NCBI GenBank assembly: GCA_002269645.1
Contig: NIVC01003943.1
Span: 4,492-68,491, forward strand
DNA: 64,000 nucleotides
From: Macrostomum lignano
Lineage: Eukaryota
Direction: 5' to 3'
This document shows, one piece after another, positions 1-63,445 of this stretch. A program made the position numbers and the translations under genes. The notes beneath the pieces were generated by a model, which saw only the letters and a program-made list of their open reading frames with translations, searched no databases and was not told the DNA's origin. Position 1 is the first letter of the stretch. The number at the start of each line of letters is the position of its first letter.

Positions 1-92
1 TTGCGGTGAGCTGTGCATGACTGTTTTGTATGCAATGACCAAAACACGAAAGACCTACAAGGAAATTATTCTTGGCTGTGTTTCCTAGGGGT

Positions 93-749
93 TCATTGTG
101 CATTTCTCGTTGTCCTTCTCGTTGTCCTTCTTTCCACATAATGTTGAAGAACTTTCTCGAGTTCATTTCTCAGCTGACTCATGTCATCAGTACCGACCAT
201 GTTCAAGTTCATTCGAATTGATTGTTCATAAAGATCCTGAATGGTTTTGAACTCATCCTCTGAAATGAACTTATCATCGATTGCCCTTGAAATGTACCCT
301 ATGATTGAAGTGTGCACCCCTTTCTCTTTTACTTGCTTCTCCTGTAGCTGCTTTAGTTTTTTTCGCCTGTTTCGCGCTACTGCTCCAGTAATTGCTGAAA
401 TAAGTCCACATGCAGCACCCACAGAGCCGAGCGGGATTGCGATTGGGGCTGTGATGACTGGCAACGTTGAGACAGCTGCAGCAGATCCAGATAGAACAGA
501 CACAGATCCTAGAATCATATTGCTGTAGTCGAAAAATTTACAGTGGCTTTCATAGCGCTTAATTTTCTTTGTGTTGTGGAAAATATTTTTTTCAAGATCA
601 TCGCGCATTTTTTGAATCTCCACCAGTCGAAACTGTTGAGAGTTACAAGTAATGACGGGGTAGAGTTTTTGTTGCTCATATTGGGGTGCACTAGGTGCAC
701 TAGGTGTTGTGGGAGCGTTCGGATCATAAAGAGAATTTTGAGCATCCAT
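93..749 (-). CDS. Viral two-helix membrane protein of the family seen in Polintons/adintoviruses (GasderminX-like annotation, recalled, unverified)
   Basis: QQFRLxEI motif, hydrophobic hairpin SNMILGSVSVLSG...IAIPLGSVGAACGLISAITGAV, basic stretch RNRRKKLK, C-terminal ISRAIDDKFISEDEF; N-terminal PSAPSAP and LYPVI. Confidence 0.65.
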   Translation of the reverse strand: MDAQNSLYDPNAPTTPSAPSAPQYEQQKLYPVITCNSQQFRLVEIQKMRDDLEKNIFHNTKKIKRYESHCKFFDYSNMILGSVSVLSGSAAAVSTLPVITAPIAIPLGSVGAACGLISAITGAVARNRRKKLKQLQEKQVKEKGVHTSIIGYISRAIDDKFISEDEFKTIQDLYEQSIRMNLNMVGTDDMSQLRNELEKVLQHYVERRTTRRTTRNAQ

Positions 750-855
750 TTTTAAGGGAATTTTTTAAAAAAATCGGCAACTAGTTGGTGGTGGTTAGAT
801 TTGTTTTACGGTTGATTGCTTCGTCTGCAGTGACGGCAACGGTCTCTGAATCTGC

Positions 856-1585
856 CTATTCATTATCTGTGAGCTCCATTCTACGCATGATCTCAAACAA
901 GTCGGTTGGATCACTTGTTTCCCTTGTGGTCTGTGGTGCCTCTTCAGCGTCAATGTTTTTGAGATTATGCAAGCGTTCAAGACGACCGATTCTTCTCACC
1001 GATTTCTGCCATTCGGTAAAAACTAAATCTACAAAGACTTTATTTGCAGTAATTCTTACTTTGATTTGATCATGCAACGCTGTTGACTGAGTCATGAACT
1101 CTTCTAAATTCCTCACTTTACATGTGTTGGTTGCGACGTTTTCTATAATTCTATCATGCAATGCTGTTGACTGGTTCATGAACTCTTCTAAATTATTTAC
1201 TTTAGCTGTGTTTGTGAAAACTCCTCCTTCAAGAATGCGCATCCGCCTATCAATGGAGTTTCCCAGAAGATTAACTGATGATCTCAAGCCGTTGATTAGC
1301 GAGACTAACGAAGTTATTTCTGACCTAAGTTCATTAGTTTCGTTTAACAACGGCATATAAAGCTTATCACTTTCAAACTTCTGCCTAGCTACTTTAAGCC
1401 TGAGATCTTCCATGTTTATTTGCAACTGGTGCATGGAGCGCTCTAGGTTTCAGTCTGTTTTTATTCAGTTTGATCTCTGGGATCTTTTCGTCGCTGTTGA
1501 TATATCGCCTGTCAAGGATGGATATCTGAGCTGATGTAAGAGCGCTGTTGCCAGAAATGGATTCACCTGCAAAGTTTATCGACAT
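856..1585 (-). CDS. Viral coiled-coil protein of unknown function, one frameshift near 1445-1450
   Basis: ORF 1394-1585 (MSINFAG...) joins ORF 856-1434 (…LERSMHQLQ…) across one indel; heptad-like sequence; internal ~28-aa duplication NLEEFMxQSTALHD. Confidence 0.5.
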
Positions 1586-1601
1586 CTTTTAATAGCAAAT
1601 T

Positions 1602-2402
1602 TTAAATTACAGTTCTTTTTTCTTTGCTGATAATCACAAACTGGTAAGGCTGATTCCACTTGTCATAGCAAAGATTAACGAATTCCTCTTGTGAAATCTT
1701 TCTGCTTGAGTTTTTTGTTGGATTTATGAAATAGGCAGGCGCAATGACCTCATTGTAAAATCTTTTTAACCTGTCCTGTGGAATGGTTGGAAACAGGAGA
1801 ATCAGATTGCAGTTCCCACGAATTGTTTTGTTCGGGAGCTCGAACCAGTTCTGTGCAATGTAAATTACATTACAATTGTTATGTCGCCCTCTTGTAAAAT
1901 AGTTTTCTATCTGCTTCTGTGGGCCTGTCATACAATCATCAAAGACGATCAAATGCTTTCTCCCCTTTTCTAGCTCATCTGGTTGGGGTAGAAGTTTGGT
2001 CTTTGGATCAGCCTGTGGATCTCCATAGGTGAACACTTTAATGTTCTGCCATTTTTCATTGTCTTTGAGGTGCTTTGCATATTCAGCAGCTACAATTTCT
2101 GGGTTACTGGGAAGGATTTGTTGGTTATTAAAACATTGAATAATGTCCTCTTTGTTCAGTTTGTTTTGCAATCCAGAAATCAGCATTTTATACTCATCTT
2201 GATACAGTGTGGGAGAGTAGATGTGCAGAGTGTCATAGTCGATAAAGCCAGGTCTAAGAAGCATGTTAAAGACTCTGAATGTTTTACCTGAACCTGATGA
2301 ACCAACAACAATGCATCTGAAGTGACTCGGGATTGACTCATGATGAGAAAACTTAATCTGATTACGTGTCCAGTGAGGATTGAAGTCGTTTGAAAAGTCC
2401 AT
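1602..2402 (-). CDS. A32/FtsK-HerA family DNA packaging ATPase
   Basis: Walker A IVVGSSGSGKT, Walker B LIVFDD, and family motif YFTRGRHNNCNVIYIAQ...IRGNCN. The likely start is ATG 2402 (MDFSNDF); the track's longer N-terminus is a tandem repeat. Confidence 0.92.
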   Translation of the reverse strand: MDFSNDFNPHWTRNQIKFSHHESIPSHFRCIVVGSSGSGKTFRVFNMLLRPGFIDYDTLHIYSPTLYQDEYKMLISGLQNKLNKEDIIQCFNNQQILPSNPEIVAAEYAKHLKDNEKWQNIKVFTYGDPQADPKTKLLPQPDELEKGRKHLIVFDDCMTGPQKQIENYFTRGRHNNCNVIYIAQNWFELPNKTIRGNCNLILLFPTIPQDRLKRFYNEVIAPAYFINPTKNSSRKISQEEFVNLCYDKWNQPYQFVIISKEKRTVI

Positions 2403-2442
2403 TTTTTCTATGATGAAAAAAAATTTAAATAATAAATAATGT

Positions 2443-2630
2443 AGATGTGTCATTTCGGGACTTAGATGTGTCATTTTGGGACTTAGATGTGTCATTTTGG
2501 GACTTAGATGTGTCATTTTGGGACTTGGATGTGTTATTTCGGGACTTAGATGTGTCATTTTGGGACTTAGATGTGTCATTTTGGGACTTAGATGTGTTAT
2601 TTTGGGACTTAGATGTGTCATTTCGGGACT
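2443..2630. repeat. 21-bp minisatellite (~9 copies) inside the viral element, upstream of the ATPase
   Basis: Unit gggacttagatgtgtcatttt, read directly. Confidence 0.95.
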
Positions 2631-2672
2631 AGTCTTGTACCTTTACATTTCTTGTACCCTCGGAAAGTACCT

Positions 2673-3061
2673 TTAGTCAAATTTGAAACCACTTCCTTTT
2701 TTAATGCTTGCTCTCATCTTCTCATAGACTGCAGGGTCCACACTGTCTGGGTTTGGGGCCAGCGGGGCCAGCGGGGCCAGTGGAGGTTGAATCTCTTGTT
2801 TAGGTGTTACAGTATCCTTTATCTTTTTGGCTGCTGTGGCTACACTGCCAGCCGCTTCGGCAACGTTCTTGATGTTCTCTTTGTTCTCTCCAATGACCTT
2901 AAAAATCTTAGCCCCCTGAGCGATCAAATCGGCAAGGCCATTCCCGAGCGCTCTTTTCTTGGATAGTGGCCTGCAGGGAAAAGTCCAGATCCGCGTTTAA
3001 TAAGATTAAGTTCCTCTTTGTCATAGTATTTGTCAATGTCTTTTTCGAAAATAATTGGCAT
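2673..3061 (-). CDS. Small viral core-like protein with GxG motifs, one frameshift near 2977
   Basis: MPIIFEK...KRGSGLF joins CRPLSKKRALGNGLADLIAQGAK...KKGSGFKFD if one base is restored in the ccc run; Ala/Lys-rich middle. Confidence 0.55.
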
Positions 3062-3078
3062 CTTTTTTAAATAGATAT

Positions 3079-4291
3079 TTATTTTTTGTTGAACCGCGAA
3101 AGCAGAAGCTCTCTCGCCCTCTTATCGATGTATTTTCTCTCAAGCATTTTATTGAGGATGTTGACAAATTCTTTTCTATTTTCATCTTTCATTCCGGTCT
3201 TTGCCGCTCCTAGAAGAACCGCTACTCGCTTGTAGATTTCAGAAATTCCTTTTCCAGTTGAGGGCGGTTGGTCTTGGGGTTGTGGAGTTGGTTGGGCTTG
3301 TAGCTGCTGGGGAGGTGATGCAAAAGACTGCTCACTTTCAGAGATGGAACTGTCATGTGGTGCCTGTCTTTGTTGAGGTGTGAAAACTCTTTGATTGATT
3401 CTATTCATTCGATCTGGAGAGTGTTGTTCTAAGCGTTGCCAGTCTGTTGGGTTTTGTTTCTTATATTCAGCTACTTTCAAAGGGTCTAACTGCTCGAGTT
3501 GACTGAGTACTTGTTCTTCTGTGAAATGTTGCTGCTGTTGTGGCGGTCGTTGTTGTTGTTGTGGTTGCTGTTGCTGTTGTTCTAGATATTTCATCTGATC
3601 AATGACTTCCCCCTGATCTGGCAAACCAAACCATTGTTTAAAGTGCTTGTACTTTTTGAATTTAGTCAGGTTGACACCGTTATCATACATAAGTCTCAGG
3701 ACTTCTGGGGCCTTTAGTATTTCTATATCTCTAGCAAGAGCAAAAGTCACTAGATCTCTATAGTTCTTTAGCTGCTTGTCCGAGATTCTCTCTTGGTTCT
3801 TGGTCATAAAAGTCAGTAAGGCGTCTGTGAAAGGAATTTTCATAGCTTCTAGCCTTTGACAACAGAAATATTTTCCTTATTTATGTCGATATAATATTCC
3901 ACTGGTTCATTATAAATGTTTTTTCTCCACATACTTATTCCAAATACATATTTCCCATCATGTTCGACACGCTCTACTGGTCCAAAAATGTTATCTGTCA
4001 CTTTTAGTTGCTGTTGTGGTTGTGATTGTTGTGGTTGCGGCTGTATCTGTGGTGCTTCTGGAATTTTGCCCAAAACCTTTTGCCTTGGGTTTCCTGTATG
4101 TCGTCGATAGTTTCTTTGACCTGATCAATATTTTTCTTAGCTTCTCCATACCCGGGCTTATGAAACTCTGTGGCTGCTTGGACAAACTCATTGTAGGATT
4201 GTTGCTCCTTATTTATTAGCCCGGTAACTCGTTTCTCTGCTTGTGCTAGCTTTTCTAGTTCAGATATCTGCTGTGTACTTTTTCGCTTCAT
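3079..4291 (-). CDS. Conserved Polinton-type structural protein, split into 3 ORFs by two single-base frameshifts (~4073, ~3852)
   Basis: DNIFGPVERVEHDGKYVFG, LLTFMTKN...KQLKNYRDLV and C-terminal TGKGISEIYKRVAVLLGAAKTG resemble a recurrent Polinton/adintovirus protein; Gln-rich linkers. Confidence 0.55.
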
Positions 4292-4321
4292 TTCTTATTT
4301 TATTTTATTTTTAGTTAAAAA

Positions 4322-5606
4322 ATGAACGACCACTGACACCAGTTTTCTACAAAATTAACAAGCCTATTTTGAGTGATGATAGCACAATCAAAGCGACTCA
4401 GGTAAGAGTTCCCAGTCAGGAAAATCAGAATGAAACTAATCTTGGTCCTGGTCAAACACTGACATTTACATACAATGGATGTTCGTCTTTGGTTAGTGTG
4501 CACAGTCTTAAGAGCGGCTTCCATATGACATTTCAATTCAAGACAAAGGGTGGTGCGGATGCGGCTCGTGCTAACGTTGACAAGCATGATGCGGATGTGG
4601 CTCTGATCAGTAACTTTTGGGCGTACATGTTCAAGGAGTTTAGTGTATCGAATGGGAGCACTGAGTTGGAGCGAATCGCCAACTTTGGAATTGTCTATGA
4701 CGCTCATTGTTTGATCGAGAATCCTGATTTTATTCAATTGGGAAGTGGTGCGGGTTTTATTGCAGATGAAAAAGAAGGAGACACCAATGACAGTGGCTAT
4801 AAAAAGAGGAAGAAGAGATACAACTATGCATTGCAAGGTGCTGATGATGCTGCTAAGAACCCGCTGTATCGGTCTGTTGATGTATTTGTACCATTGAGAT
4901 TCATGAGTGGATTCTGTAATACATTTAATCGACTGACTAGTAACTTTAGCTACACCTTTAGATGACTAGAGATGATCGCAGTAGAGTGTTGTGGACTGGG
5001 GCGGACCACACAAGGATGGAGGTGAAGCTAACCGGAATCGAGCTGTATTTGGAAGTCATTGAGCCAAAGACTGCACTAAAAGCTGATTATCTTAAGGCAA
5101 TAGAGAAGGACATTGATGTTGCATACACGGCCTACATGTGTCGAGATGAGCGAAACGAAACTAGAACAAACATCTGCATTAAAGAGGGATCATGCAGCAA
5201 TCCAAGGTATATCATTATTAATATGAGAAACCCAAATAGCATTATACGCTACATGCATGGAGACGTGCGGTCCATTCAGCATGAAATCAGTGATAATCTT
5301 TACCCTGCACTGCCACAAAATGGAGATTTCAGTCAGAACAAGATTAGCAAATTTTATAGCGAGTTGGTCGACTTGGCTGTGAAAGAGAACAATGGAATTG
5401 CTATCACTGCTCTTCAATATGGAACTCTATATCCAATGTTTGGCGCTGATGTGTCTGCCAGACAAATGCCTACTGATAACAGCCCTGTGAATATCGTGAC
5501 TAACATTGAGAGGACTGTCGCAACACCCGTGGACTTGTACATTATCTATGCATTTGAGAGGAAGGTGAAGCTTAACATGATCAACAATTCATCCAGTAAA
5601 GTTTAA
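4322..5606 (+). CDS. Major capsid protein (double jelly-roll, Polinton/adintovirus hexon-like), ~428 aa after restoring two bases
   Basis: Repaired N-terminus MERPLTPVFYKINKPILSDDST; beta-rich sequence; KLTGIELYLEVIEP, NPRYIII, YPALP, YGTLYPMFGADVS, LYIIYAFERKVKL pattern; directly upstream of a penton-like gene. Breaks at ~4324 and ~4960. Confidence 0.8.
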
Positions 5607-5632
5607 ATATTTTTTTTGTGGGTGAAAAAAAA

Positions 5633-6495
5633 ATGGAAGCTATAGCCGAAAGACTAAACAACATTGTTTCACACTCCAAGGAGAGCATTCCTATTACAAT
5701 AACTGGGCGAATTAATGACTCAAACGGGATGTTTGTTGAAAAATTAGAGCAGGCGATTCGCCTGGATCCAGGCGCTAATTACCATGTCTATCTTAACGAC
5801 TTCACTGGTTGGTCAAACGTTCCCAATGTGATGGCAGCAAATAATAAGTTTTATTACAAATGGAAAGGTGCAGCAGCAGACCCTGTGGTATTCCATGTGA
5901 GCACGCAAAGTGTGGATACCTACAATAACTTTCTAGAAAACGTCTTTACTAAAAGAGGCCATTTTGAGACACCTGATATGAGTAAGCCAGAGAAGAAACT
6001 GTTCCCTGTTAAACTAACCTATGATCTCACTGTAATGAGAGTGGTCATGCAAGTTCACAAAGATGCGGAGGTTGAGTTTAAAGATGACACTTGGTATAGG
6101 GAATTGGGATTCGTGAAGAAAGTTTATAAGGCAGAATCCACAGCGCGGACTGTCACTCAAGCATCGGGGGCCGTTAGCATGGCCCGGGAAAGTGTACGCG
6201 GTTTGTTCTTAGCACCCAATATAGCAGACATTGTAAAGGGTTTGAATATTCTAATCAGAAGCAATCTCAGTCTTGATTGGGTATTTAAGGGAAAGCGAAC
6301 GAATATTTTGTACAACATCTCCAACTCTGTTGCTGGAGGACAGATGGTGGTAGAGAAACCAAATCCAGTGAAAAGAGTTGTATTGAGTAATAAAGAGATT
6401 CACGAGATTGTGCTACAGTTTGAGACTGAAGATGGGATGGGCGTTGATTTTAATGGGAAGAGTTTGTATTGACGTTGATCATTGAAAGAATGTAA
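5633..6495 (+). CDS. Minor capsid protein (penton, single jelly-roll)
   Basis: FTGWSNVPNV...NNKFYY, ILIRSNL, ILYNI, EKPNP, IHEIVLQFETEDGMGVDFNG. Adding one g at 6455-6457 gives the family-type end FNGEEFVLTLIIERM* (stop 6493-6495). Confidence 0.82.
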
Positions 6496-6499
6496 GAAA

Positions 6500-6739
6500 T
6501 CACAATTGTCTAATGATTTCTACAAAGTTATAGTAGCTGTCGTAATCTTTTACATAGGTTACTCCATACTTATGAAACCAGTGTCTTTGGAGAGCTAGAT
6601 TAATATTAGGGACATTGATATCAACGTCGGGCCAATATTTTCTCATGTACTCGCTGCATTCAAGTTTGCATCGGTACTTACTCTTGTAATTAGGCTCGTG
6701 CGCTTTGTAATAAGAACCTGGAGAAACAACTGGAAACAT
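6500..6739 (-). CDS. Small viral orphan protein (79 aa, Tyr-rich)
   Basis: Intact ATG ORF convergent with the penton, tightly packed, with the same TAAAAATG start context as other viral genes. Confidence 0.45.
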   Translation of the reverse strand: MFPVVSPGSYYKAHEPNYKSKYRCKLECSEYMRKYWPDVDINVPNINLALQRHWFHKYGVTYVKDYDSYYNFVEIIRQL

Positions 6740-6855
6740 TTTTAGAGAAAATTTAATTTTTTTTTCAAAGGGTAAGGACCCTGGGTTAGGGGGTTTAAAG
6801 TTTTAGGGATCTGGTTTCATGTTGCGAATTGAATGTGGGGAGAAGAATGCATATT

Positions 6856-7157
6856 TTTTTCTGATTGTTTCGAAGATGCTATGGATGGATGTCAGTGGAT
6901 TATGTCTGTGTCAGTGAGCATAACAGGTGTCCTACTGTTATGCTCTGATTCTGTCAGGGATAATATGGATGGATTTAATGGGATTATGGAGGATGTTTTG
7001 TGAGCGAGTGCGACCCCCCTTTTTTTCTGATTCTGTCGGGGATAATATGGATGGATTTAGGTGGATTATGGAGGACGTTTTCGGAGCGAGTGCGACCCCC
7101 CTTTTTTTCTGATTCTGTCAGGGATAATATGGATGGATTTAATGGGATTATGGAGGA
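6856..7157. repeat. ~82-bp subterminal direct repeats (about 3.5 copies) with an 11-bp perfect hairpin
   Basis: Unit ctgattctgtcagggataatatggatggattt...gagcgagtgcgaccccc; hairpin gagcataacag (6916-6926) / ctgttatgctc (6935-6945). Confidence 0.85.
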
Positions 7158-8269
7158 GGTGAAAAATTTTGTCCCAGAAGCCCCCTCATGCCTTCTACGT
7201 ACCATCAAGCACACGGAAATTAAATTTGAAAGTAAATCTAAGCAAGATTAGCAGTTGCATAACATAAGTAGAGGTCTGCTAATCGCAGGTGCAAAAATAA
7301 AAGCAAAAAAATACTAGGGCTGTTAGCAGTCCGACAAGTTTTTCGTTGCCAATAAATGAAGCGGACTGAAATTGGTGCTTTGAACTGCGAGGCCCAGGTT
7401 AGCCAGATTCCTTAGCGCAGTAACGATCTATTGCTGAATCATTGCTTTGCTTTAGATGCGAGTTTGGCGAAATACTCCAATCGTAAACTTCATAGCACAC
7501 AGCGATTTAAGCGATTTTATAGGGAGCGAAAGGGGTCTTATGAGATCGATAACAAGGGGAAAAGCAAAATATGGTGTATTGCCGTTACTTTACTGTACGC
7601 CCGCCGCTCCCAATGTAGGTAAAGCGTCAAACTTTGCATCATGTAAAAGAAAACAAAATTTCGAACAATCTGGCGAAAAATTATCATTTTAAGTGCAATT
7701 GATCCAGAGTTATAAGCAGTTTAGCTGCAATGCAAACTTTAAAAAATTGCCATATATTTCGAGTGTTGTGTCCTTCTACTAAGTAGTCCTTGTTGCGAAC
7801 CCATATGCGAACATTCCTATTTAGCCAATTCGTTCATATGATATTTATGCAGCACGCCACGGCCTTTTGCGAAATAATACTTTTTGTGGTGCTTAAATAA
7901 AAAAACGAATTAATAATGTACAAAAGGGGTTTTGCACATTTTGAAGCGAGGGGGAGGTGTATTTGGGTGTAATTAAAAACCGGATAGATTTACTTTTACA
8001 CTACTAACAGTAGTTTCCAGTAGCAGAAACATCAGTAACAGTAGCAGAAACAGTTGAGGTTTTGGGGGAATCTTTATAAATACAGGGTTACCGAAATTTA
8101 GAAACGGCTGAGAGAGTTCGTATTTTTAACCATATGTAAAGTTCTTAGTTTGCATCGCGCTGCATCCTAGATACGAGTGCGACGGCTATGAGGTCAATAC
8201 AATGAGGTCCTGAGGTCAGCACGGAATTTACGAAGAGAAGGCTGCGCGCAAGTTCAAAGGGACCCAAGG

Positions 8270-16070: not shown

Positions 16071-18303
16071 TTAACCATTTGGAAGCCAAAGGCCTGCACC
16101 GCAGGACATGCCGAAACGGCCCAAAAGCCCAGAGATTGATAAATGTCTATGGCATCAAAAATCATCTCCCAATCACTAAAGCAAGTGCCCAGTATGACCT
16201 GCTGTGCAGGTCATGACTGATTTAAAGAAGTCTATTATGCATTTCCATTATGTTTTCACTCAAATGTTAAAGGTGAAATAAGCGTGTAAAGTGAAAATAT
16301 GATGTGATGCACAAATGCATGGTTCCAAACAAAACAAGGACATGAAAAGAAATAAAGTGTAGCAGGTTTCAAGTTAGGAGACGCCAATGCAGGACTGCAG
16401 GAATGCAGGGACCTCAAAGTGTCTCGTGCCAGATCCTGAAGCATGGATCTGGACAGAGACCAGGATTTCCGGGACATTGACTGCAGCAAAATACTGTCTT
16501 CTTAGCTGGAAGGTCAGGTTTCAAAGAGCACATTCGGCATCGTTTGCTTGGGCTTCCGTTACTGGGAGACTCAATTGGCGAATTAATTGGATGGTTGGCC
16601 TGCATCCGGGCTGGAACCTGAGTCGGTGGCCGAGCGCGTCCCTGTCTTGAGTCGCGGATCAGCGTCTTGATGCTATTCTCTAGGAAATTTAAAAAATTGG
16701 CTGTCCCACCAAATTTCTTGTACAGCGTCCAAGAGTTTCGTCCAAGCGTGAGAATCAGGTGAAACGCGAATTTCTGGAACCATTTGTAGGACTTACAATT
16801 TGAATGGTAGAGATGCACGGACGCACCGAGTCGATCAACACCGCCCATGTTGCGATTGTACTGGATGACAGCCGTTGGCTTCGGAATTTGTTCAACTTGA
16901 CCACCGCGAAGAATTCTGCGAACATCAGGTGCAAGCGGCAGGCATGCTTGTGTCCAGAAGGTAGACAACCTTTGTTCCCGAGGCCTTCTGTCAGCTAGCT
17001 TGATAGCGAGTGTCTGATCGCACCTCATGAAGCCCCGACCCGGAGCAACCACTAATTTTTCTTGCAATTCTCTCGGGATACCACGATCCTTTCGAACAGT
17101 TCCGGTGAGCAGTCGTTTTGTTGAACAATTAGATGGCCAATCTGTGTGACGTAAACCAACTGTCCGTGAATTTGTGATATCCTTCACCCAGCAGTTCGCG
17201 GCTAAGCTCAACAACGACTCGTTCGCTCATGGAGAGCTCATCGCATTGGAGACCAGCACCGAAGGTTGCGTGTTCGGCCTCAACAGAATGCAGTAGGAAA
17301 TTCCACAGGTTTCCCGTCGTGGACTCAGTCGGCAATAAAGTTTGATGCCGTATACTTCGCCAATTCCTGCTTGGAATATACTGCTTCAGCAATAGTCTCC
17401 CTTATACAGAATCAGCGTCTCCTCGATGGCGACATCCTGCTCTGGTCGGTAGGTTTCGCGACAAATTCGGCTAATCAAGTCCAGAAAAGGCCTTACTTTA
17501 CACAGTGGGTCGTTGATATTGAACTCTCGGCAGTCGTAGCACCGGAAGTGGGCCAGTAGTTGAAGAAATCGCCAACGGGGAAGGCTCTCGGCTTGCGAAA
17601 GTATGGATTCCGATACATGACGTCTGTGGACCAGTAGTGGCGTATGGTCGGCTTGCTGTTGATGCCCATGAAGAGCACCATGCCCAGAAACTTTTTCATC
17701 TCGGCCACACAGCATGGTTTAAGAGCAGACACTCCAACAGGCAACTCTTCCTCGCCAGTTTCTGCACTCTCCTGCTGGAACTCCCTCACTGCCAACCACA
17801 TTCGCTCATCGATCCATGTGACAAGACTGGTGAGAAACTCTTCAGTCAGTAAGATAGATAAAAATTCTCTCATACCCTCGTCTGAATTTTCTGGTAGATC
17901 GATGCTTGGATTGATGGTCAAAAACCCTCGGAATTCCGGCACCCCGTCGTGGTCAAACGAGTTGTCATTTCCAGGGGCTACTTCAGCCCATTCCGCGGTC
18001 GCCTCATCTTGGCTCTGATCAAATTCTGGATTCATGCTGTCTGGCTCCGTTTCTGGAACGGCCAGTCATCGCTTGATGAAGCGTCTTCCGAATCGGAATC
18101 CAATCCCAGTATGCGCAAGGCGTCACTTTTAGCTGTCCTTTTCGGGCGCGTAGAAGCCATTTGTGGGTAGGAAGGTTTGAACAGGAGCTAGCAGAAGAAC
18201 TCTGTGGTATACTTTACTTCTGGGCTTTTAGGGTGTGCACCCGATTCAGCAAAAAAGAAATTTGTCCATAGACTGACTGCTCTGCAGGCCTTTGGGCTTT
18301 TAA
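16071..18303 (-). mobile_element. piggyBac DNA transposon (candidate ends)
   Basis: TTAA at 16071 and 18300 flank imperfect inverted repeats (aagccaaaggcctgca 16083-16098 vs tgcaggcctttgggctt 18283-18299) around a piggyBac transposase. Confidence 0.65.
16414..18160 (-). pseudogene. piggyBac transposase (PGBD4-like), multiple frameshifts
   Basis: KFLGMVLFMGI...IRHYWST, DPLCKVRPFLD, AIEETLILYKG, KQYIPS, YGIKLYC, FTDSWFTS, GTVRKDRG, YNRNMGGVD, C-terminal Cys-rich CRMC...CSQC...LCPDPCFRIWH. Confidence 0.92.
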
Positions 18304-20306: not shown

Positions 20307-22790
20307 GTTATCGTGAATTGAATCTGTCTGAACTCGGATTCGGAGAAGAAAAGTTGTTGAAGAGAATAGTTGCTATATGCTGTTTTTTAACTCTTTTCCA
20401 GGGTGTGATAGAATTGTTGGTCTCTGATTGGCTGCTTCTCCGGTGGGTTAGTTAGTTCCTCATAACAGTCCTCATAACAGTCTCTTTATTCTACCGGTAT
20501 ACGCTATACATGTTTGAGCATAAAGCTGACTTGCTGCGAATCAATACTACATGTCTTCTCTAATACCTGGTGTAAGCTTTCTTCGTGTCAGTTAAATTTT
20601 GTATCTATACACGTAGGTACTGCTTCTGTAGATAATTTTCATACTCATAATTTATTCACTTCCGTTGCACGAATGTATTCCGACAGTGGCACAGGCGATC
20701 GCTTTTTGGTGAAAGCCCGGAGGACCTAGCGGATTTTCACCTAAATACAGGCCACTCCAAAGAACTTAAAAAGTGTATTAAATTCGTGAATAAAGATGAG
20801 CGCGCTCGCATGACCCATCTGCGATCTCGGCAACCACAAAGCTCTGAGCTTCAAAAAAGCCGTAGCAGAAGCAGAGCCACATATTCAAGCCTGCCTGAGG
20901 CTCAAATAATGAAGTCAGCACCCAAGACGGAAAGTGGTTCAGTTCCGAAGGTGGCTTTCAAACACCCAAGGACTTCCAACTAAGAGAATTCAGTCAGACA
21001 TCAACTGCAGAGACTACTACTCGGGATTCGCAACCAACCCGATGCCAGAAACAATCTGTCGCAAGTACGACGCAAAGTAGCTGCTTACATGTATATTTCT
21101 TATTTGAGTTTCACAACCAGATCTGTATTTCTTTCAAATAAAGAAGCCTAACGTAGATTTAGATAGGGAAAAAAGGAATATAACGGATGTTACAAAATGT
21201 TATCTACATTTCTGGATAAAAGTTCCATGGATTTTAAATTGACGTGTGCAAATTGACGAACACCTAGCTGGTGGAGAATAAAAAGTTAATATCGGATATA
21301 CTTTTTTCTAGAAGGTAAAATGACTTGTCTAAATTCAAGAAAGCTCTGCAAACTTTTTGCATGCTTATGGCAAATAGTGTGATTTCATTTCACAAAAGCG
21401 ACACTTTTCAGGAACTTTTCAAATGTTTTCCAATGCAGAAAAGGCGAACTATCTTCTTGGTAGTAATAAAACAAGCACTGAAGCTGCTTTGAACTACCAA
21501 GAAAGTCGTTTTTTACCTTTAATATAGTCTCTAAATAGTTTTCAAGGTCCTTGTCATTTAGTGCAAGTATATATCGCTTTGCTAATTGAGGGTTCATCGG
21601 AAGTCAGAGTTTAAGGCAATGAAAAGTTCTCTGCCACCAACGCTGCGTATAAAACCGAAAAGTAATGCTTTCAAGCGAACGTGCTTTCATTTTAAAGGAT
21701 TCTCATAAAATTTTTCTCCCGAAAGGGGGCACTAGATTGCTAGTAATTGCTATATATGCTTCTTCAAACTCTGGAAGCTTTTAAGCGTTAAATAATTATA
21801 AAAGTTTTTTCTAACAATTAACTAGACATTAAGTTTTTTGGCTTTCACTTCATTTTACTTTGTTCTTAATAACTTTCAGAGAAAAATACAACCATGTGGG
21901 TTTTGAGGTCGGGGGCTTTGGCGGTTTGGACCTGGTGGGTTCCGTTTAATTCGTTTGTTTCAGCCGTTCAAATCGGTGCGGTTTCGACGATTCAAACAAA
22001 CTTAAGCGAAGATCTCGGCTTGCAGATGACGGGGAGCTCCGGCTGCTGAGTTCCTCAGGCTCAGGGGGAGGGTAGCTGTGGTCGTGGCTGAGCGGTCTAG
22101 TTTTGTCGACGATCAGAATGCCGAATGCAGAAATTCGTAGCCGATACGGGAAACTTTAAGATAAGCAAATTTGTCGAGATTGTTACTGATAATAGTAGTT
22201 CGCTGCCACCACCGCGATTATACGCGGGAAAAGCTCTAAAGCTCAAAACTAGCTCGAGTTTTCTCTAGGACTTCTCTTGAGACCGCTAAGGGTCAAATAA
22301 AGCTTCCGAGGTCACGAAGGCTAAGACACCGTTTCAACACAAGATTAAATTGGCAGCTGGCGATTGGCTCCCCTATTGGCAATTGGCACTGAATAAATAT
22401 TATTATTTTACCAACACGAATTCGAGCCGCAATTATAAGCAAGTTCACTATTCTCAAATTGTAGCAACTTAAATTGATGGGTTGGACGAGGAGCTGGTCG
22501 GGTCGGGATGCTGGGCTTACAGGGTCCTAACGGTCGGGGTAGGGTCCAAACGAGAGTCTAGCCGGGAGAGGAGGGGCGCAGACTCTTAAATACACTCTCA
22601 TGAGCCACCGGGAGGAAAGGGGGTTACCCCAGGTGAGACAGGAGAGACACACAGCGGAAAAAGGGGGCGGTACACTGAGCGGTAACGACAAAACACCGGG
22701 TGGACCGCGGGAAAACAAACGAAAAACTGGAGGAGGTACAGGAGGTACCCAACCATACAAAGCCGAGGCTAATTAAATTATAATCGTATA

Positions 22791-23621
22791 ATGTCACAAA
22801 AAGGCAAACGAAAGAACAACGTTGGGGAACAAGAAGCATCCCCAACAGGCATCTCCCTTCCACCGAACGCGAAATCAAGGCGAGAGACTGTTGATGGCAG
22901 CTGCCTAGCCTGCAACGACGAAGTGCACGAAGGCATTCAATGCGAAAGCTGTCACCGCTGGTGCCACCAGTCCTGCTCCGGCCTAGCAAAGCCAATTTTC
23001 ACCGCCATCGCAAATGGCCCTAGCGATAATGGTCTCATATGGACTTGCCGAGATTGCAAGACCCATGCCCGCGCGCTACTTAACAGCGTGGAGCTGCTTA
23101 AAGACCTCAAAGTCAAGCTGACGGCCCTCGAAGAACGCATAGAAGAGCTAGAGTCGATTGAGAGCGGGAAGCAAACTGTCACCTACGACATCAGCTTTGA
23201 TGAAATCGTGGAGGAAGTCAGGCAGCGCGGTATAAAGAAGAATAACATCATAGTTTTTGGACTCCAAGAAGACGCTAAGCTCGAGGACTTTATGCAGGAT
23301 GGGCTCAAAGTGTCCCCCGCAACTGTCCCAATTGTCGCCACCAGGCGGATCGGTCGCGAACAACCTCTCAGCAATCGACCAAGGCCCCTCGTTGTTCGGC
23401 TGGTCAACGATAGCGACAAAGCGGCCTTCTTCGGTAATCTGAGAAACCTGCGCGAAACTGGCTCTGCCTACTCCCGTATTCGGATCGAGAACGACTTAAC
23501 AGAAAAGGAACGGGCATTTAAGCAGAAGATTGTTAAAGAGCTTAAGACTCGTCAAGAAAATGGTGAGAAAAACATCCGAATTGGCTATAAGAGGGGAGTT
23601 CCCTTCATTAAAACCTACTGA
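22791..23621 (+). CDS. LINE ORF1 with PHD finger and L1-ORF1-like RRM/CTD
   Basis: CLAC...CESCHRWCHQSC...WTCRDC; coiled coil; KKNNIIVFGLQE, RRIG, RPRPLVVRL, IRIENDLTEKER. Confidence 0.9.
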   Translation: MSQKGKRKNNVGEQEASPTGISLPPNAKSRRETVDGSCLACNDEVHEGIQCESCHRWCHQSCSGLAKPIFTAIANGPSDNGLIWTCRDCKTHARALLNSVELLKDLKVKLTALEERIEELESIESGKQTVTYDISFDEIVEEVRQRGIKKNNIIVFGLQEDAKLEDFMQDGLKVSPATVPIVATRRIGREQPLSNRPRPLVVRLVNDSDKAAFFGNLRNLRETGSAYSRIRIENDLTEKERAFKQKIVKELKTRQENGEKNIRIGYKRGVPFIKTY

Positions 23622-26600
23622 ACTTCCTCTGTAAACTGTGACTTAAATACCCCAACACTTAATGGTCAAAATAGTCAAAATATTATCCAGGCAAATGAAA
23701 AGCGGATACAATACACTAGAGAGTACCTCATTTCTATTAGAAATAACAATGCTCAAAAGATCAAAAAAATTCCTTACAATATCAAATCAAAACTCCTTGA
23801 ATTTAATATTATCCAAAAAATTGATAAAGAAAAATTTACTATTAGCAGCTGGAATATCAATGGACTTTACACAATAAAAGACTCTGTGATGATTCCCAAA
23901 CTTGAACTACTGGAAACTGAATCAATTTTTAAGAATAATATTCTCTGCCTTCAAGAAACTTGGATAATAGACACAAAAAATGAAAACAAGCGACTCAAAA
24001 TCAACAACCTGTCTGAAAACTACATGACATACCAAAAGCCTGCAAACAAAAAAGGCTGTAAATTCATTGGCAGAGCTTCTGGTGGATTATTAACAGCTTA
24101 CAAAAAGTCACTAGATACACAATACAATGTTACAGAATCATTCAAACATTATAAAAACTTCTTGACACTAAATTTTAAACACAAAAAGGATAAAAACAAA
24201 AGCTTTACCTTAATAAACTCCTATATACCCCCACTGTCTTCAAAATATTATGAAGAAGAAAATTGGGAACAGTTAACAATTCTCCTGGATGCTTACCACT
24301 CCGAAGAAAACATCTTCCTTATTGGAGACTTCAATGCTCATATAAACAATACCTCATACATAGATTTAAATTCAATATATACCACCAGAGCAAAAAACAT
24401 CTCACTTACTAGACAAAGCCAAGACAAGAAAACCTGCAAAAATGGTAGACTACTTAACCAGATTACTGACTCATACAACCTGCATCTAATCAATGGTAGA
24501 TCATTATCAGACACAAATGGTGAATTCACCTTTCTCTCAAAATCTGGTTCCTCTGTTATAGATCTCTGTTTCGTCTCTACCAGCTTACTCCAACACCTCG
24601 AAGACTTTAAAGTAAAGAACCACACCTACTTTAGCGACGACAACCAAATAGTGCTCTCCCTATCAAGTGAATTCACAGAGGAAATCACAGAAACTAAACA
24701 AGCAACCAATAACTCGAAAACGAGATATAGAGTCCTAAAAAAGTCACATAAACCCAACCTGCAACAAGAAAAACATATCAATAACTTCGCAAATGACCTG
24801 AAAAACATGAATGACAAAATCACAAATCTAGACATACAAAACCCAGCTTTTATAAATGAATTAAGTAGAAAAGTTAGACAAATTCAAAACAACATCACAG
24901 TAGAGATAAAGAACCCACTATGCTCAACACTGCCTCGCTTCCTTAAAGATTTAAGAAACGCTGCTAGACATGCCTGCAGAAGATATAAAACCTTCCCTAC
25001 TCCCAACAACCTCTCAAGCAAAGTACAACTCAAAAAAGCATACGAAAAAAGCTCACTTCATGGAAATTTGAAACAACTCTCTGTGCAGACAACATGATCA
25101 ACCAAGCCTTTATTCAAAACGATACAAAACAACTTTGGAACTTATTAAAAACACCAAATCCCTCAAACAACAGAGTAACAATTGATGAAAAATTTATCAT
25201 ACACTTTCAAAATCTTGTAACTGAACAAGACAGCAGCATTAGACTATCATACAATCTTCACCTTGACAACCCTATTCTGGCTGATTTAGAGGATTTCAAT
25301 GCCCCATTCACCAAAGAAGAAGTTATAAAACATATTAAAAAGCTCAAAACCGACAAAGCACCTGGGCACGATAAAGTATATGTAGAAACACTCAAATACC
25401 TCGAGAACGAACTTGCTGACCTCCTATGCTCACTTTTCAACGAAGCACTCAAACAAGGAACCTTCCCAACTAGTTGGATAACAAATACACTTCATCCGAT
25501 TTATAAAAACAAAGGCAGCAGTGCCGACCCCAACAATTACAGAGGAATCTGCATTCAACCAATTCTTGGCAAGCTCTTTTGCCAAATTATTAAATCCAGA
25601 CTCGAAAACCTAGCATACGCAAACAATCTTATATCAAAATACCAATACGGTTTCAAGCCCAATCACAGCACAATCGACCAATGTTTTAATCTTTACAACA
25701 TTATAAACCAATCCATCTACAACAAAGAAGAACTCTTTATTGGATTTGTTGACTATGAAAAAGCCTTCGATAGCTTAAATCAACCAACCCTTTGGCACAA
25801 AACGGATAACCAGGGTATTAAAGGTCAAATGACGGAACTTATCAAGAACATGCATAAAAATGCCTGCTTCATTCTAAAAAATGATGATGATGATGATGAA
25901 ACCCAGCCAATCCCAATATCTAAAGGTGTTCTTCAAGGCAACCCTCTCTCTACCATCCTTTTTGAACTATATATTGACGACATTGTTGAATATCTTGAAC
26001 TCTCTAGCGCTAGGCGCTCTCTTACGAGATCTGCTTTCCCACTCATCCTACTCTTTGCAGACGATCAAGCCATTCTAGCTAAAAACAAAGACGAACTTCA
26101 AGACACATTTACGACTATGGAAAATTACTGCAAACAAAATTACTTGAAAGTAAACGCAAGCAAAACAAAGTTCATGCAGGGCAATACCAGACAAAAAAAC
26201 GACACAGAAAGCATTGCTACAAAAATATACTACGACAACCAAGAAATAGAGGAAGTAAATGAATTTAAATACCTGGGAATTATATTTTTGAACCAAAAAA
26301 CAGCTTTAAAAAATGTATTGAACACCAAACTAAGCAGGGATATACAGCCATGTTTTCCCTACTCCATAGGGTAAAGAATACGTCCCTAGACATCACACTC
26401 ATTCGCAGACTATTTGACGCGCTTGTTACCCCCGTTATCACTTACGGTTGTGAGCTCTGGGGCCCTCTGGCTACCATGTCTGATACAAAAGCTATTGATA
26501 ATATTCAGCTGAAATTCTACAAATATCTCCTCAATCTACCAAAATTTGCTAGCAACAGTGTGGTATCATCAGAACTTGAGCTTACTCCAATCTCTCAACG

Positions 26601-27117
26601 AATCGCTAAAACCTACCTCATCTACTGGCTGAAGATTAGACACAAAAAACTCTGCCAAACGACTCTAGAAATTTTCTACTCAAACACCGGCCAAAAAAAT
26701 CCATGGAAAATGAATGTACTAAAGAAACTAGAAAGTATAGACCTAAAAGCACTAACTGAAGATAAACTTTCCCAAAGCTTTAATAACGAGAAATACCTAG
26801 TGAAAAAGCACCTCAAGATACACAGAGAAAGAGAACTTAGCCAAAAGCTAGAGAATCAGCAACATATTAAACTCTACAAAAACGCCTATCTCTACAAAAA
26901 AATCTGCAGGCCCGACCTTTCAGATTTCTTTCCATGTACATTTAGAAACAAAAAATTCTTAACAACCCTCCTAAAACTGAAATGCGAGATTACACCCAAC
27001 TTTTTTTCTCAAGAACCATGTAAAATGTGTGGAGCGCGAAATGGTTCTGACATTCTACACTACTTGACCGAATGTCCACAAACTGAAGAGATCAGGAAAA
27101 AATACTTCTGTCAATAA
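23622..27117 (+). CDS. LINE ORF2: APE endonuclease, reverse transcriptase and CCHC knuckle; two single-base frameshifts (~25048, ~26300)
   Basis: SWNING, LCLQETW, GRASGG, NSYIPP, IGDFNAH, SVID, DKAPGHD, NNYRGI, QYGFKP, DYEKAFDS, GVLQG, LFADD, FKYLG, YGCELWG, CKMC...HYLTEC. Confidence 0.93.
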
Positions 27118-49429: not shown

Positions 49430-50700
49430 TCCCGAGACGGACCAGCCGGCTTCGTCTCGCGCTCCGTACGAGCAGGGAGACTCAGCCCCAGTCCTGCTGC
49501 TTGCCAACCCGCTGTCGCACAAACGCGCAGGCAGTAGGCCGGCAACCAGGGTCGCAGCGAACGCACAGGCCCTGGTGACGATGTCCTACTGGCACTAGAC
49601 CCCCTAATAGCAGAAGCAGGACGATACTTACGGTGGCACAGGTTGCTCAACTTGGTGCTCTAGGCGTCTCTGTGTAACTACGATGTGTAACTGTGTAACT
49701 CTGTCTCTGGCAACCTGCTCGGTGTTGGATCTGCCCGGGCGGAAGCCGCTTTGGAGGCTCAGCAGCAGCGGGTTGAGGCCAGGCAAGAGGCAGTTGCGCA
49801 GAGTTGTGTTCAGCAGCTTAAGCGTTGTGCATTCTAGCGCGATGCCCCGCTGGTTGTCCATTGGAGATGCACCATTGCTGAGGAACTGAAGCGGAATCGT
49901 TGCCTCTAAAGCTGCAGTGCTGGTTCAGCAAACTGGTGATGATTGGGGCAATGGCGAGTTGAAGGCACCAGCAACAATCATGACAGAGTCACGAGCAGGG
50001 ATGGAATCAAGCATGCAGCCCAGAGTGTTGTAAAGGATCTTCGCAGGTCCGGGGGCCGTTGGAGCATAGGCTCTGCGACGAGGGCGCCCGTGCTGGGCTG
50101 CTGGTGAATGCTCAAATGACGGAGGCGCTGCGCGGAGGCACGAATACCGCCCCAACTCTCACGCTCCCTATAGGAGACCGCATCGCGGTGTGCGAGGACT
50201 CCTGGTGATGAACCGCCCCGAAGCGATTGTCTCCGACAGGAGGAACCAGAGGAACCACCTGAAGGTGCGCCTGTTCCGCGCGGCCGTCGAGGCGATCCTC
50301 CTGTACGGCATGGAGGCTGTGCCGCTGACCGAGACGCGAGAGCGAGCCCTGGACGCGCTCTACCGATCGCTGCTGCGCTACGCGCTCTACCGATCGCTGC
50401 TGCGCTACGCGCTGGGCGTGCACTACCCAGAGCGCCTGTCGACCAACACTCTGATGTCCCGCGCTGGAACTCCGCCCCTGAGCGCTACCCTGCGCCGGCG
50501 CCGTCAGATGCTTCTGGGCCACTGCCTACGGACTCTGGGTCGCGGTGCACCCGTTTCTTTGGCCCTGCTGCACCGGCCGACCGAGCAGTTGCGCCGCGGC
50601 CAGGCCCGCACTGCAGCTCTGACTGACTGCCTCATCGCTGACTTGCAGGCGCTTGAGCTGAGCCCCTCAGGCTGCTGCTGCCTGCCCCTTCCGCCTGTTC
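49430..50700. mobile_element. Decayed RTE-clade LINE with an inverted 5' part
   Basis: Minus strand: EN remnant (VMIVAGAFNSP) and RT start (NQRGIALECTTLKL...QSGFRPGRSNTEQV). Plus strand: RTE C-terminus (LKVRLFRAAVEAILLYGMEA...RRRRQMLLGHCLR). Confidence 0.8.
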
Positions 50701-50809
50701 TGCAAGCGCGTGCCCGCAAGGGGCCTCCCCTCTGCGTCCTAATATCAATATTTATATATACGCTCGTATTTCAATATTTTATTGAACAGGTAACAGCGGA
50801 TGGGGTCCC

Positions 50810-51022
50810 AGCTGCAGCAGGGGCGCCAGTTACAGCGTGGGCGCCAGCTACAGCGGGGGCGCCAGTTACAGCGTGGGTGCCAGCTACAGCGGGGCGCCTT
50901 CTACAGCGGGGCGCCTTCTACAGCGGGGCGCCAGCTACAGCGGGGCGCCAGCTACAGCGGGGTGCCAGCTACAGCGGATGGGGGTGCCAGTTACAGTGGG
51001 GGGCGCCAGCTACAGCGGGGGA
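50810..51022. repeat. ~18-20-bp minisatellite
   Basis: ggcgccagctacagcggg units. Confidence 0.9.
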
Positions 51023-52043
51023 GCCACCCTCCGCTTGTGCAACCTCTAATCCAGAGGTAATCAGTCTAGAGAGCGGAATTAATTAAAATTTTGCCTAAGT
51101 CATTGCAATACAAGACGATCACTCGTAGACGGTTTTTTCCCGACAACTGAATATAATTTTATTTGCCACAAGGAATTAATTTAAATGGAATGAAATAGTT
51201 GCACTATACTACCTTCAAATACAAAGTAGATCCATTTCTTGTTTCTGGAGCTGAAGCCTTACAAATAATTTAGTTTATACAATCAGAGCTGTAAAATTAT
51301 TTTTTATTGACAAAAAAGTTTCTTGAACACTAGTTTTGATTAATTATATTACACATGTTGTTTTGGCATTTCTATGTCATTCGTTCATTCATTTCAGTTT
51401 TAGTCTACCCAAGGGAATTCCCTTTTTAGACCCATGCCACGCAAGCAGCTCGCTATCGTCCAATGAGATGAGAGGAATCATTCCATTCCTCAAGGTCACA
51501 GTGAACTTGGCGTCAAATCCCTATTATACTGAGGTTCGTGTGGACTGTGGAGAGTTTTGAATGTGAACTGCAGAGCAGACACGTTTGCTTTTCCACTTAA
51601 TTCTTACAAAACGACAACAGGAATCAGGATATTAATTATTAGAACACTATACAGAAATGGGTTATAAGAAATATAGTCCATTTTGCAAATCTATAAAGAT
51701 TTTGCTACTACTTTCTTTTATGTACTTTACAACAAGACTGGATGCAATTGGCATTGATCTATCCAAGCCCAAGATACCGGTTACAATGAACGAATTCGAC
51801 TATAACAGTAAGTTTTTCCGGTCGCAATTTATTATTTTTACTTCTCATTTGATCTTAAAATTTGTATTTGCATTATTGTAAGATTCATATAGTCATTTGA
51901 TTTTCATCCTTTGACTTGTTATCAAGTCAAGATAATAATTAAGGCATATTATATTGTGCAAAAGCAGCAAAACATTAACAAGTGTTACTTCAGTCTATTA
52001 TTTTCATTATTATGTAAATAATAAAAAATCGCTAAATTTTCAG

Positions 52044-52181: not shown

Positions 52182-52846
52182 GTGAGTACTTTTTGAATAT
52201 TCGATTTACAAATGCTATTCAGATAGTTAGGCAATAGGCATTGTCACAACAGACTTGTTTTGTTGTTTTTGCTGAGAACTTGGGCCGAACTGGCAAACTC
52301 AAAGCGGGAAATAAAAACATTATTATCTGCTTCTTTAAGTTTGCCAATAATACTAATAGATAAAACAGTTAAGTGCACATTTTTATTAACATTGCCTTGA
52401 ATGAATGTAAGCGATACGGACGGCCTACTTTGTTAAAAAATCGCCGCGGAAGTGCAGAATGGAACGGAGTCAAGTCAGAGAGATAAGAGATCGGATAGAT
52501 AAAGTGACCAATTTATTTAACTGCCCTCCAAACTTGAGCTGAGACCCCACCTCACCGTGAACCCACCCCCTTGCGCCCGCCCTGTCTGCAATGTCAGTAC
52601 AATGAATGAATTCACTTATAATGAAACTGGGCTTGCGGCTTTCATTTAAAAGCTTAAATGATTGCGCAAAATATTCAAGGCTCAATTCAATTAACTGCAA
52701 ATGCTGAGCAAGGGCATATTGTTTAGGGAATTAGGGGGGGGGGGGCTGCGGAGCAAATTGGCGCGCGCATGTGGGGCGGCGCCTTTAATCCTTTGCTCTC
52801 TGATTCTCACTGTCGATTGCGCGCAATAAACAAAATCAATCGCCTT

Positions 52847-52870
52847 TATAAACTGCACCGGTCTCAGTCG
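52847..52870 (+). promoter_or_regulatory. Candidate TATA box and Inr for the LDLR-like gene
   Basis: TATAAA at 52847-52852 and TCAGT at 52864-52868, upstream of ATG 52920; spacing is shorter than canonical. Confidence 0.35.
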
Positions 52871-52919
52871 CCTTTGTTATAGTAGAGCAAATTCTGTCTA
52901 TCTTACTCAATCGCAAAAT

Positions 52920-62294: not shown

Positions 62295-63445
62295 ATGTCT
62301 TCGGTGCAGGCCAAGCCAGCAGTGGCGCAGAGTTCCGCTACAATCACTGTCTCAACGGCGGGCGCTCCGCCACAGCCAGCCTCCGAAATTTGAAGGGCTC
62401 AATGACCCTGCCACTGCAGTCTTCCGTAAACGTTGGCAACAGCATAGCCCACATCCGGGGCTTAACTCCCTTGGCGCAGCTGAACTCGCCCGATTTAAAA
62501 AATTTGACCTCAACTGGAGTGACGCCGTTTCTCACGTCGCCCGACTTCGACAAGCTGGTCAGCCAAAGCCTCGGCATAACGCCGACCTCGGCCAGCGGAA
62601 ATGCGCCTCAGACGCCGACAACTTTCCTTAATCCGAAGTTCGTGACGGAGGAGCAAGAGCGTTTTGTGATGTAAGCGAATTTTGCCGTCTTGAATTTGTA
62701 CTGATTTTTTATTATTAAAGTTAAAATGCGCTCGTAGAAAGAATTTGATTCATTTCCTATCATTCTCGACCTCATTCGGTTTCAATTCGCAGGAACTTCG
62801 ATGAGAAGATCAAAAGCATGATCAAGAAGGAGCGCGAAGGTGACGACGAAAACCAGCTGAACACGCCAGTCATCATGGACATCTCCGGGCCCGGCTATGT
62901 CATATCCTCGGTGGCGACCTCGATGGACACATCCGGCCAAGCTGTTGTCACCGTTGGCCAGCAGACAGCATCGATGTTCTCCGCCGCTGCCGCTCCGATT
63001 CCGACCTCCATCGTCACCGTGTCCTCAGCCCTGTCTCGCCCTCAGCTCGCCACCTCAGCCGGCCTCCATTGCTGCGTCCACAATAGCCGGTGGCAGCTAC
63101 ACCACCGAGGACGACAGCGGCGAGGAGCCGATGGACGATGTTGTCAGCAGCGTCGGCTCGACGTCCAGACGGCTCGGCCTGGGCGACCAGGAGCAGCTGA
63201 AGCTCGAGCGGAAGCGTCAGCGAAACCGCGATGCGGCCAGGAAATGCCGCGAGCGCAAACTCGAACGAATCAGATTCCTCGAGGAGCGAGTCGCCGAGCT
63301 CAAGTCGCAGAATAGCCGGCTGCAGCGGACCGCCGTTGACCTACGCGAGCAGGTGAAAACCCTGCAGCACGTGATCGTGGAGCACACGAAGCGCGGCTGC
63401 AGCCTGAAGGACTCGCTGGGCTCCAAGCTGGGCGGGCTGGCTTAA
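62295..63445 (+). CDS. jun: Jun-family bZIP transcription factor, one intron (~62671-62792), two apparent frameshifts (~62300, ~63060)
   Basis: Delta/JNK-docking-like [15 protein letters not shown] and LTSPD phospho-sites, [18 protein letters not shown], b[49 protein letters not shown]...HTKRGC. Confidence 0.95.

Follow-up and report, generated by a model that had tools for sequence, protein, structure and literature searches.

The DNA analysed here is a 64,000-nucleotide stretch of Macrostomum lignano (assembly GCA_002269645.1, contig NIVC01003943.1, positions 4,492 to 68,491), referred to throughout as the window. Taken jointly with the explanation set out below for the family as a whole, positions 1-7198 very probably represent the frameshifted capsid-and-packaging half of one member of a 15-16.5 kb Polinton/Maverick family that resembles the Alpha adintoviruses. 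This half, taken alone, is an already known kind of element, one more Polinton. What is more unusual is found beyond the window, in sister copies, where a slot between the left terminal inverted repeat (TIR) and a phospholipase A2 (PLA2) gene holds an allelic series of heat-shock element (HSE), gene and palindrome array. On the basis of sequence, the chances appear evenly balanced that the slot cassette is a stress-inducible, type-private switch built of a protein-site pair, with both binding and expression predicted. A more elaborate and more tentative proposal is that at least 10 non-cross-reacting protein-palindrome pairs could act as phage-like specificity types, swapped independently of capsid type and controlling a stress-triggered switch between integration and replication.

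By the features that define Polintons and Mavericks, the element is one of them. Its exact terminal 21-mer was present 348 times in the genome (a control 21-mer, 0 times), corresponding to an estimated ~170 elements if the termini pair up, a figure that includes possible haplotype duplicates. All 23 end pairs examined carried the termini AGTAG//CTACT, and the distance between paired ends was mostly 15-16.5 kb. Perfect target site duplications (TSDs) of 6 bp flanked 17 of the 23, two had a TSD with one mismatch and four had none; mispaired ends, used as a control, gave 8 in 2000. TIR lengths ranged from about 0.1 to 0.8 kb. In the capsid region all 40 scored matches in the genome, the best 40 of 476 first-look candidates, were 95-100% identical. 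An empty site was also found, as contig C1704 carries the right flank of the window copy (7199-7500) with no element end attached, 100% identical over 302 bases and 97.8% over 1.6 kb. A proposed link of the window's right junction to the left end on contig C105 was discarded, given that upstream the empty site is different. The copy number check called for by the first-pass annotation of the window returned a high-copy, recently mobile family.

The gene order, read from sister copies, is TIR, variable slot, PLA2 (minus strand), integrase, pX-like gene, protein-primed DNA polymerase B (pPolB) and protease (plus strand), followed by the genes of the window. Sister copies gave Pfam matches above cut-off to DNA_pol_B_2 (PF03175, 61.6 bits), rve (PF00665, 38.2 bits), Phospholip_A2_4 (PF08398, 52.7 bits) and Adeno_PX (30.1 bits). 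The Adeno_PX match is a separate open reading frame (ORF) after the integrase and not the PLA2 ORF, although a diverged pX on PLA2 would escape this search. The contig of the window begins within pPolB, which scored 38.3 bits in the window copy's own upstream DNA; its own integrase and left TIR fall outside the contig. The expectation that pPolB, integrase and protease would lie to the left of the window was borne out for the polymerase upstream and, with a matching left TIR, for the integrase in sister copies, so that the block is more than a captured fragment. The protease was partly misplaced, as its C-terminal 28 codons lie within the window at 2-88 (+), 100% identical to amino acids 106-133 of a sister 133-aa ORF with an adenain-type Peptidase_C5 match (PF00770, 21.9 bits, cut-off 21.3). 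The pPolB motifs were common to 33 homologues, and the Cys and His of the N-terminal region were kept in 33/33; there was no OTU match in Pfam or PDB, and a sequence profile of pPolB found no useful PDB relative. Its 2585 matches included 120 listed at 35-44% identity; where a source was named, it was a mollusc, a spider, an insect or a coral. Judged by these matches pPolB is ordinary for animal Polintons.

The 428-aa protein encoded at 4322-5606 (+) is, according to its structural model, a double jelly-roll major capsid protein (MCP), here of capsid type A. When folded from the natural frame of a sister copy leading a 100-sequence alignment it gave a pLDDT of 93 and a pTM of 0.90, and the top Foldseek matches were the double jelly-roll capsids of Sputnik (TM 0.65, E 9e-19), iridovirus, PBCV-1, mavirus and PRD1. 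Further structural matches comprised virophage, pithovirus, MELD virus and adintovirus entries, all at no more than 12% identity (the best adintovirus-named match, 10%). Folding from the single sequence gave no usable model (pLDDT 32), and a sequence profile of the MCP found no useful PDB relative. The match to PF21738 was 23 bits for this MCP and 37.3 bits, above the cut-off of 27, for a second capsid type (B). Sequence relatives numbered nine by word-indexed search and 535 at E 0.001 by profile, with no named reference hexon, whether of the Mayetiola class that marks Alphadintovirus or of another, among those found; a pattern-based search of IMG/VR and JGI metagenome contigs, which is weak, returned none. 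The non-self relatives were 71-78% identical, the next 43-44% and the next 27% or less. The lineage had been called divergent, which holds for the capsid and not for the polymerase. The product of 5633-6495 (+), which follows the MCP and is 287 aa in sister copies, is a strong candidate for the penton (minor capsid protein) on sequence grounds; it scored 0.98 to viral clusters in the ESM Atlas and had no Pfam or PHROG match.

Capsid type B was represented by 5/32 MCP and 5/34 penton copies, 76-79% identical to type A in nucleotides and 83% in MCP amino acids. Non-synonymous and synonymous divergence (dN/dS) between the types was 0.103/1.29 for the MCP and 0.116/2.66 for the penton (ratios about 0.08 and 0.04), and the capsid genes of both types have diverged under purifying selection. 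Among the copies fetched, the frame was open in 23/32 for the MCP and 27/34 for the penton.

The interval that separates the left TIR from PLA2 differed wholesale among copies (0.2-2.7 kb), while the adjoining PLA2 was 91-97% identical. To describe this slot, 58 left arms were surveyed, 21 from paired ends and 37 picked by PLA2 similarity to one copy and hence biased; two others were left out, an arm occupied by a nested retroelement and another that is a truncated right arm. A slot gene, in either orientation, was found in 37 of the 58; a single protein profile picked up 36 of these and tblastn the other. The products are unclassified, helical proteins that sort into 10 types, with an eleventh that is broken. 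Identity between types is 24-38% where BLAST can align them, and their DNA shows no similarity. Types 0, 2 and 4 carry acidic tails. The unity of the family was supported by a profile built beforehand, which gave 28.6 bits to one type fetched later and 32.8 to another (against shuffle maxima of 7.5 and 9.2), and 9/10 types passed a leave-one-out assessment. Omission of whole subgroups from the profile weakened the scores, and four control proteins remained at shuffle level. The sub-alleles of type 0 appear to be coding, as pN was 0.23-0.25 at saturated pS. A score of 0.94 to a bacterial cluster in the Atlas is a lead only. Identification as a DUF3102 helix-turn-helix protein was rejected, since a first look through the genome at E 1 gave nothing for PF11300, and neither did an hmmscan of the types.

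A perfect three-unit HSE lay upstream of the slot gene in 21/37 gene arms, and four of the HSE-negative gene arms have less than 270 bases of upstream DNA. Elsewhere the HSE was found in 4/21 gene-less left arms and 1/24 right arms, with none in 16.5 kb of core sequence and two in 56.8 kb of host DNA. Downstream of the gene, types 0, 1, 2, 4, 5 and 6 carry an array of a type-specific palindrome, with words and spacers that are unlike, and type 9 carries a threefold repeat. A single member of each type served to read the motifs. Among the other members of the six array types, arms not used for motif reading, the own-type site was present at least twice in 18/23; a foreign-type site was present twice in 0/37 gene arms. 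Related words occurred in two pairs of related proteins, a TCCTG half-site in types 0 and 2 and a AACGCGTT core in types 5 and 7. Across 764 Mb the type-4 word had 30 occurrences, spread over 11 contigs and mostly in arrays with a 119-bp period. Type-4 palindromes at C1660:237501 and C4484:14819 lie to the right-arm side of matches to the capsid; judging from these positions, cassettes may also occupy right arms. The right arm of locus L092 contained an insertion with an HSE. Four arms (L091, L115, L134 and L141) retain a type-2 palindrome array and lack the slot gene.

Slot types 2, 5 and 6 were each found with both capsid types (C110/C298, C142/C66 and C744/C658). The left and right TIRs of the same element had a median identity of 98.2% over 250 bases (20 elements), against 91.6% between different elements (190 pairs); in five elements with perfect TSDs the two TIRs were just 84-92% alike. 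Such divergent pairs would be expected if recombinant genomes had been inserted, and conversion after insertion would look identical. An 11.2 kb element at C276:289399-300644 (L107, L117, L108) has penton and MCP at both ends, inverted, with a perfect TSD and no pPolB, integrase or protease match, which suggests that it was mobilised in trans; it looks like a defective snap-back genome. Two internally deleted copies of 3.6-3.8 kb retain the capsid genes and both TIRs, one at C544:473029-476599 (L113) with a perfect TSD and one at C105:570683-574516 (L112) with none. Nested in sister copies are sequences which we take, from their motifs, to be a set resembling reverse transcriptase (RT), RNase H and tyrosine recombinase (L106), a tyrosine-recombinase-like ORF (L103:841-1896) and a non-LTR RT (L024:6272-7411). 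A 153-aa ORF near PLA2 with a weak PC4 match (E 0.15) was seen at one fetched locus (L126:1860-2318, minus strand), a stretch that has no TIR. Mosaicism between modules is known at larger scale from parts of two reports (PMC8502044; 10.64898/2026.10.13.758929).

These data are consistent with a family in which replication likely proceeds through linear, protein-primed DNA, and whose members likely recombine and package that DNA, and integrate with a 6-bp target duplication. By analogy with Polinton and adenovirus biology, pPolB would start at the ends of the excised linear genome and copy it, the filling of a shell of double jelly-roll protein and penton would fall to the ATPase, adenain would mature the GxG core proteins, PLA2 would breach membranes and the rve integrase would insert the genome. 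Host heat-shock factor may switch the slot gene on, and the product, as a dimer, could bind the palindrome array of its own type and so activate or hold only genomes of the same type. Recombination within the conserved flanks would swap cassettes and capsid types. In sections of PMC8097293 both the trigger of animal Polintons and the question whether particles arise from them are described as open. A young, high-copy family with a textbook HSE before a candidate regulator offers a direct way to study that trigger by biochemistry and transcriptomics, and the joint variation of protein and site types suggests competition or incompatibility among co-resident elements. Competition and incompatibility of this kind are familiar from phages and plasmids.

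Several observations weigh against the proposal of a virus-like family with a type-private switch. The family is known from assembled contigs alone, with no virion, free genome or transcript, and some contigs may be duplicate haplotypes, so that counts do not equal independent insertions. No slot gene was present in 21/58 arms; the slot protein had no match in Pfam, PHROG, PDB or a search of 5.8 billion proteins, type 8 failed the leave-one-out assessment, and DNA binding is read from architecture alone. A perfect HSE is absent from types 3, 8, 9 and 10, only one site is present in types 3 and 7 and none in type 8, and neither the element core nor the window contained a palindrome site. The window copy is itself broken and has no left arm, hence no cassette type can be read there. 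TSDs are mismatched in one of the three reassortant pairs, and C66, which has no TSD, may be a chimera. The words of types 1 and 4 do not follow those of related proteins. Finally, gene and array are linked, and an own-type match within a type would be expected from linkage alone; informative beyond linkage are the repeated occurrence of arrays, with different words, across six diverged types, and the resemblance of the words in two pairs of related proteins.

It is scarcely credible that the block is a captured fragment, arises from contamination or reflects faulty assembly. This reading could draw on a contig that begins inside the element, on indels that are frequent in all copies and on the four paired ends with no TSD, but it is already refuted by the number of termini, which run to hundreds with diverse flanks, and by the 17 perfect TSDs; the empty site is a further point against it, as is the presence of the stretch in 20 runs of eight studies of one organism label (one of which may be the source of the window). 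It is improbable, though less so, that the family spreads intracellularly only as a self-synthesizing transposon, with capsid genes as inherited baggage and no particle formed. Maverick particles had not been observed according to the part of PMC8097293 consulted, and the present family has yielded no virion or free genome and no relative in IMG/VR or JGI metagenome contigs. Baggage is nevertheless hard to reconcile with the low dN/dS between capsid types, with an MCP that is open in most copies and with a full virion set that includes PLA2 and protease.

Two further alternatives concern the slot, and each is a real if minor contender. The slot protein and array may together form an episome-holding or origin module, one that sets up incompatibility types as plasmids do, instead of a transcriptional switch. 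Such a module has analogues in EBNA1, paired with the oriP family of repeats, and in papillomavirus E2. The regular spacing of arrays beside gene and terminus (as in the type-4 period), the lack of sites at core promoters and the four arms with a type-2 array but no gene, as cis-only cheaters, would all suit it. Yet pPolB, which is established to initiate at termini, can do without an internal origin, neither gene nor array is present in many arms, and heat-shock control with acidic tails suits an activator better. Alternatively, and with a similarly modest probability, the slot may hold ordinary Maverick cargo, namely fast-evolving host-directed or anti-silencing genes beside repeats that are unrelated by-products of replication slippage; the element does carry other tandem repeats. 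Variable accessory regions are described in parts of a report on vertebrate Mavericks (PMC8097293), and nematode Mavericks have 2-5 kb of cargo between left TIR and integrase (10.1101/2022.07.12.499685, in part). The nematode cargo, however, consists of host-derived, intron-bearing proteases and kinases, and slippage would have to account for six independently diverged types that each have a palindromic repeated word just downstream, with words and spacers unlike.

The element works, by analogy, like an Alpha adintovirus, which is a likeness of mode and not an assignment to the genus Alphadintovirus; the adintovirus family has been renamed Eupolintoviridae, in the order Amphintovirales (PMC8502044 and PMC12451622, in part). 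Features shared with the Alpha adintoviruses, as the main text of PMC8502044 describes them, are a pfam03175 pPolB whose N-terminal region has conserved Cys/His, an rve integrase, adenain, packaging ATPase, hexon-like MCP, penton candidate, PLA2, pX-like core protein, TIRs and insertion in an animal genome. Unlike those viruses, the pX match here is on an ORF separate from PLA2 and the MCP is at the edge of PF21738; that main text has no HSE, allele or palindrome cassette, although the supplementary maps may differ. Vertebrate Mavericks, as portions of PMC8097293 present them, are similar in size (12.7-24.6 kb), TIRs, 6-bp TSDs, AG-starting termini, core genes and accessory regions; in a few hosts they too reach high copy number, and their capsid genes too are under purifying selection. 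They differ in gene order, which here is PLA2, then integrase, pX, pPolB and protease, then five minus-strand genes including the ATPase, then MCP and penton. They differ also in the terminus (AGTAGA here, (AGT)2 or (AG)3 there) and in the accessory region, which here consists of a series of alleles from a single family. Nematode Mavericks, in the parts of 10.1101/2022.07.12.499685 seen, share a poorly conserved 2-5 kb between left TIR and integrase and signs of inter-element recombination. Their cargo there comprises intron-bearing WASP proteases and KRMA kinases, in contrast to the intronless helical proteins, HSE and type-specific palindrome arrays found here, and no fusogen was seen in the present family. 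Orthopolintovirales-related insertions in Rhabditophora are mentioned in part of a further report (10.1101/2025.04.19.649669).

No report of HSE-driven allelic cassettes in Polintons was found in a literature search of partial listings, and supplementary maps or tables could include the family. Divergent alleles paired with allele-specific repeated sites are characteristic of lambdoid immunity regions, the protein-site pairs of plasmid incompatibility and EBNA1/oriP. The resemblance of the slot cassettes to these systems, read from genes and sites, would be a functional analogy only.

The remaining genes of the window copy agree with the first-pass annotation in gene set, order and strand, five on the minus strand and the MCP and penton genes placed divergently before the terminal repeats and the element end at 7198. 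The module had also been called complete, which is correct for its genes and not for its reading frames, as five of the seven core genes are frameshifted relative to the natural open frames of sister copies. Only two are open, one the 266-aa A32-type genome-packaging ATPase at 1602-2402 (-), with the expected Walker A/B and RGRH motifs (GSSGSGKT, LIVFDD and TRGRH), a PF04665 (Pox_A32) match of 27.4 bits (cut-off 22.8, E 2.8e-6) and no match in PDB. The other is a 219-aa gene at 93-752 (-) with a hydrophobic hairpin and no Pfam family above cut-off, whose product is likely to be a membrane-active virion protein. A coiled-coil gene with an 84-bp internal repeat (856-1585, minus strand) is in two frames, as is a gene for a GxG-motif protein (~2673-3074, minus strand; 129 aa in a sister copy) with a presumptive core role. 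The ~404-aa gene at 3079-4291 (-), which we label PZ-like by assumption, is in three frames with breaks near 3860 and 4080. The MCP gene is in two frames with a break near 4960, and the penton frame stops after 278/287 aa. The MCP split was also present in two of nine other best-matching copies, and so may be inherited, a duplicated haplotype or a recurrent error.

A repeat scan located an intergenic array of nine 21-bp tandem copies at 2442-2630. The right TIR (6503-7198), an inverted match to the left ends of sister copies, holds 82-bp tandem units at 6854-7157 and ends in CTAC, the final T of the other termini being missing. A 79-aa ORF in the inner TIR (6500-6739, minus strand) is duplicated at the left end of many copies and has no Pfam match. 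Rfam gave no group I intron match in 12 loci or the window, and the 40 best PLA2 matches, which are biased to the closest copies, were unsplit. GGNCC words were not depleted, and a general scan of ORFs, not aimed at TBP, found no TBP. Gene starts at 752-800, 1585-1630, 2402-2445, 4280-4324, 5590-5635 and 6739-6785 share a pattern of T-run, short spacer, A-run and ATG. Trans-splicing as the origin of these starts was dropped, since contigs continue through the ATPase start with no foreign leader. None of the runs listed as containing the stretch was labelled as RNA. In four runs guessed to be RNA the element was covered far deeper than the flank, and DNA carry-over of a multi-copy element would give the same result.

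Judged by the motifs of genes flanking the element, the host is an animal. In the host part of the window we take 16414-18065 to be pieces of a piggyBac-like transposase, 22773-27117 a long interspersed nuclear element with ORF1 and endonuclease/RT pieces, and 50070-51086 a non-LTR RT fragment, all by their motifs. On the same grounds, 52830-55364 (+) is presumably an intronless 844-aa LDL-receptor-like host ORF and 62749-63445 (+) a Jun-like bZIP ORF in two frames. Many long minisatellites, with periods of 4-75, were present between 9287 and 60708.

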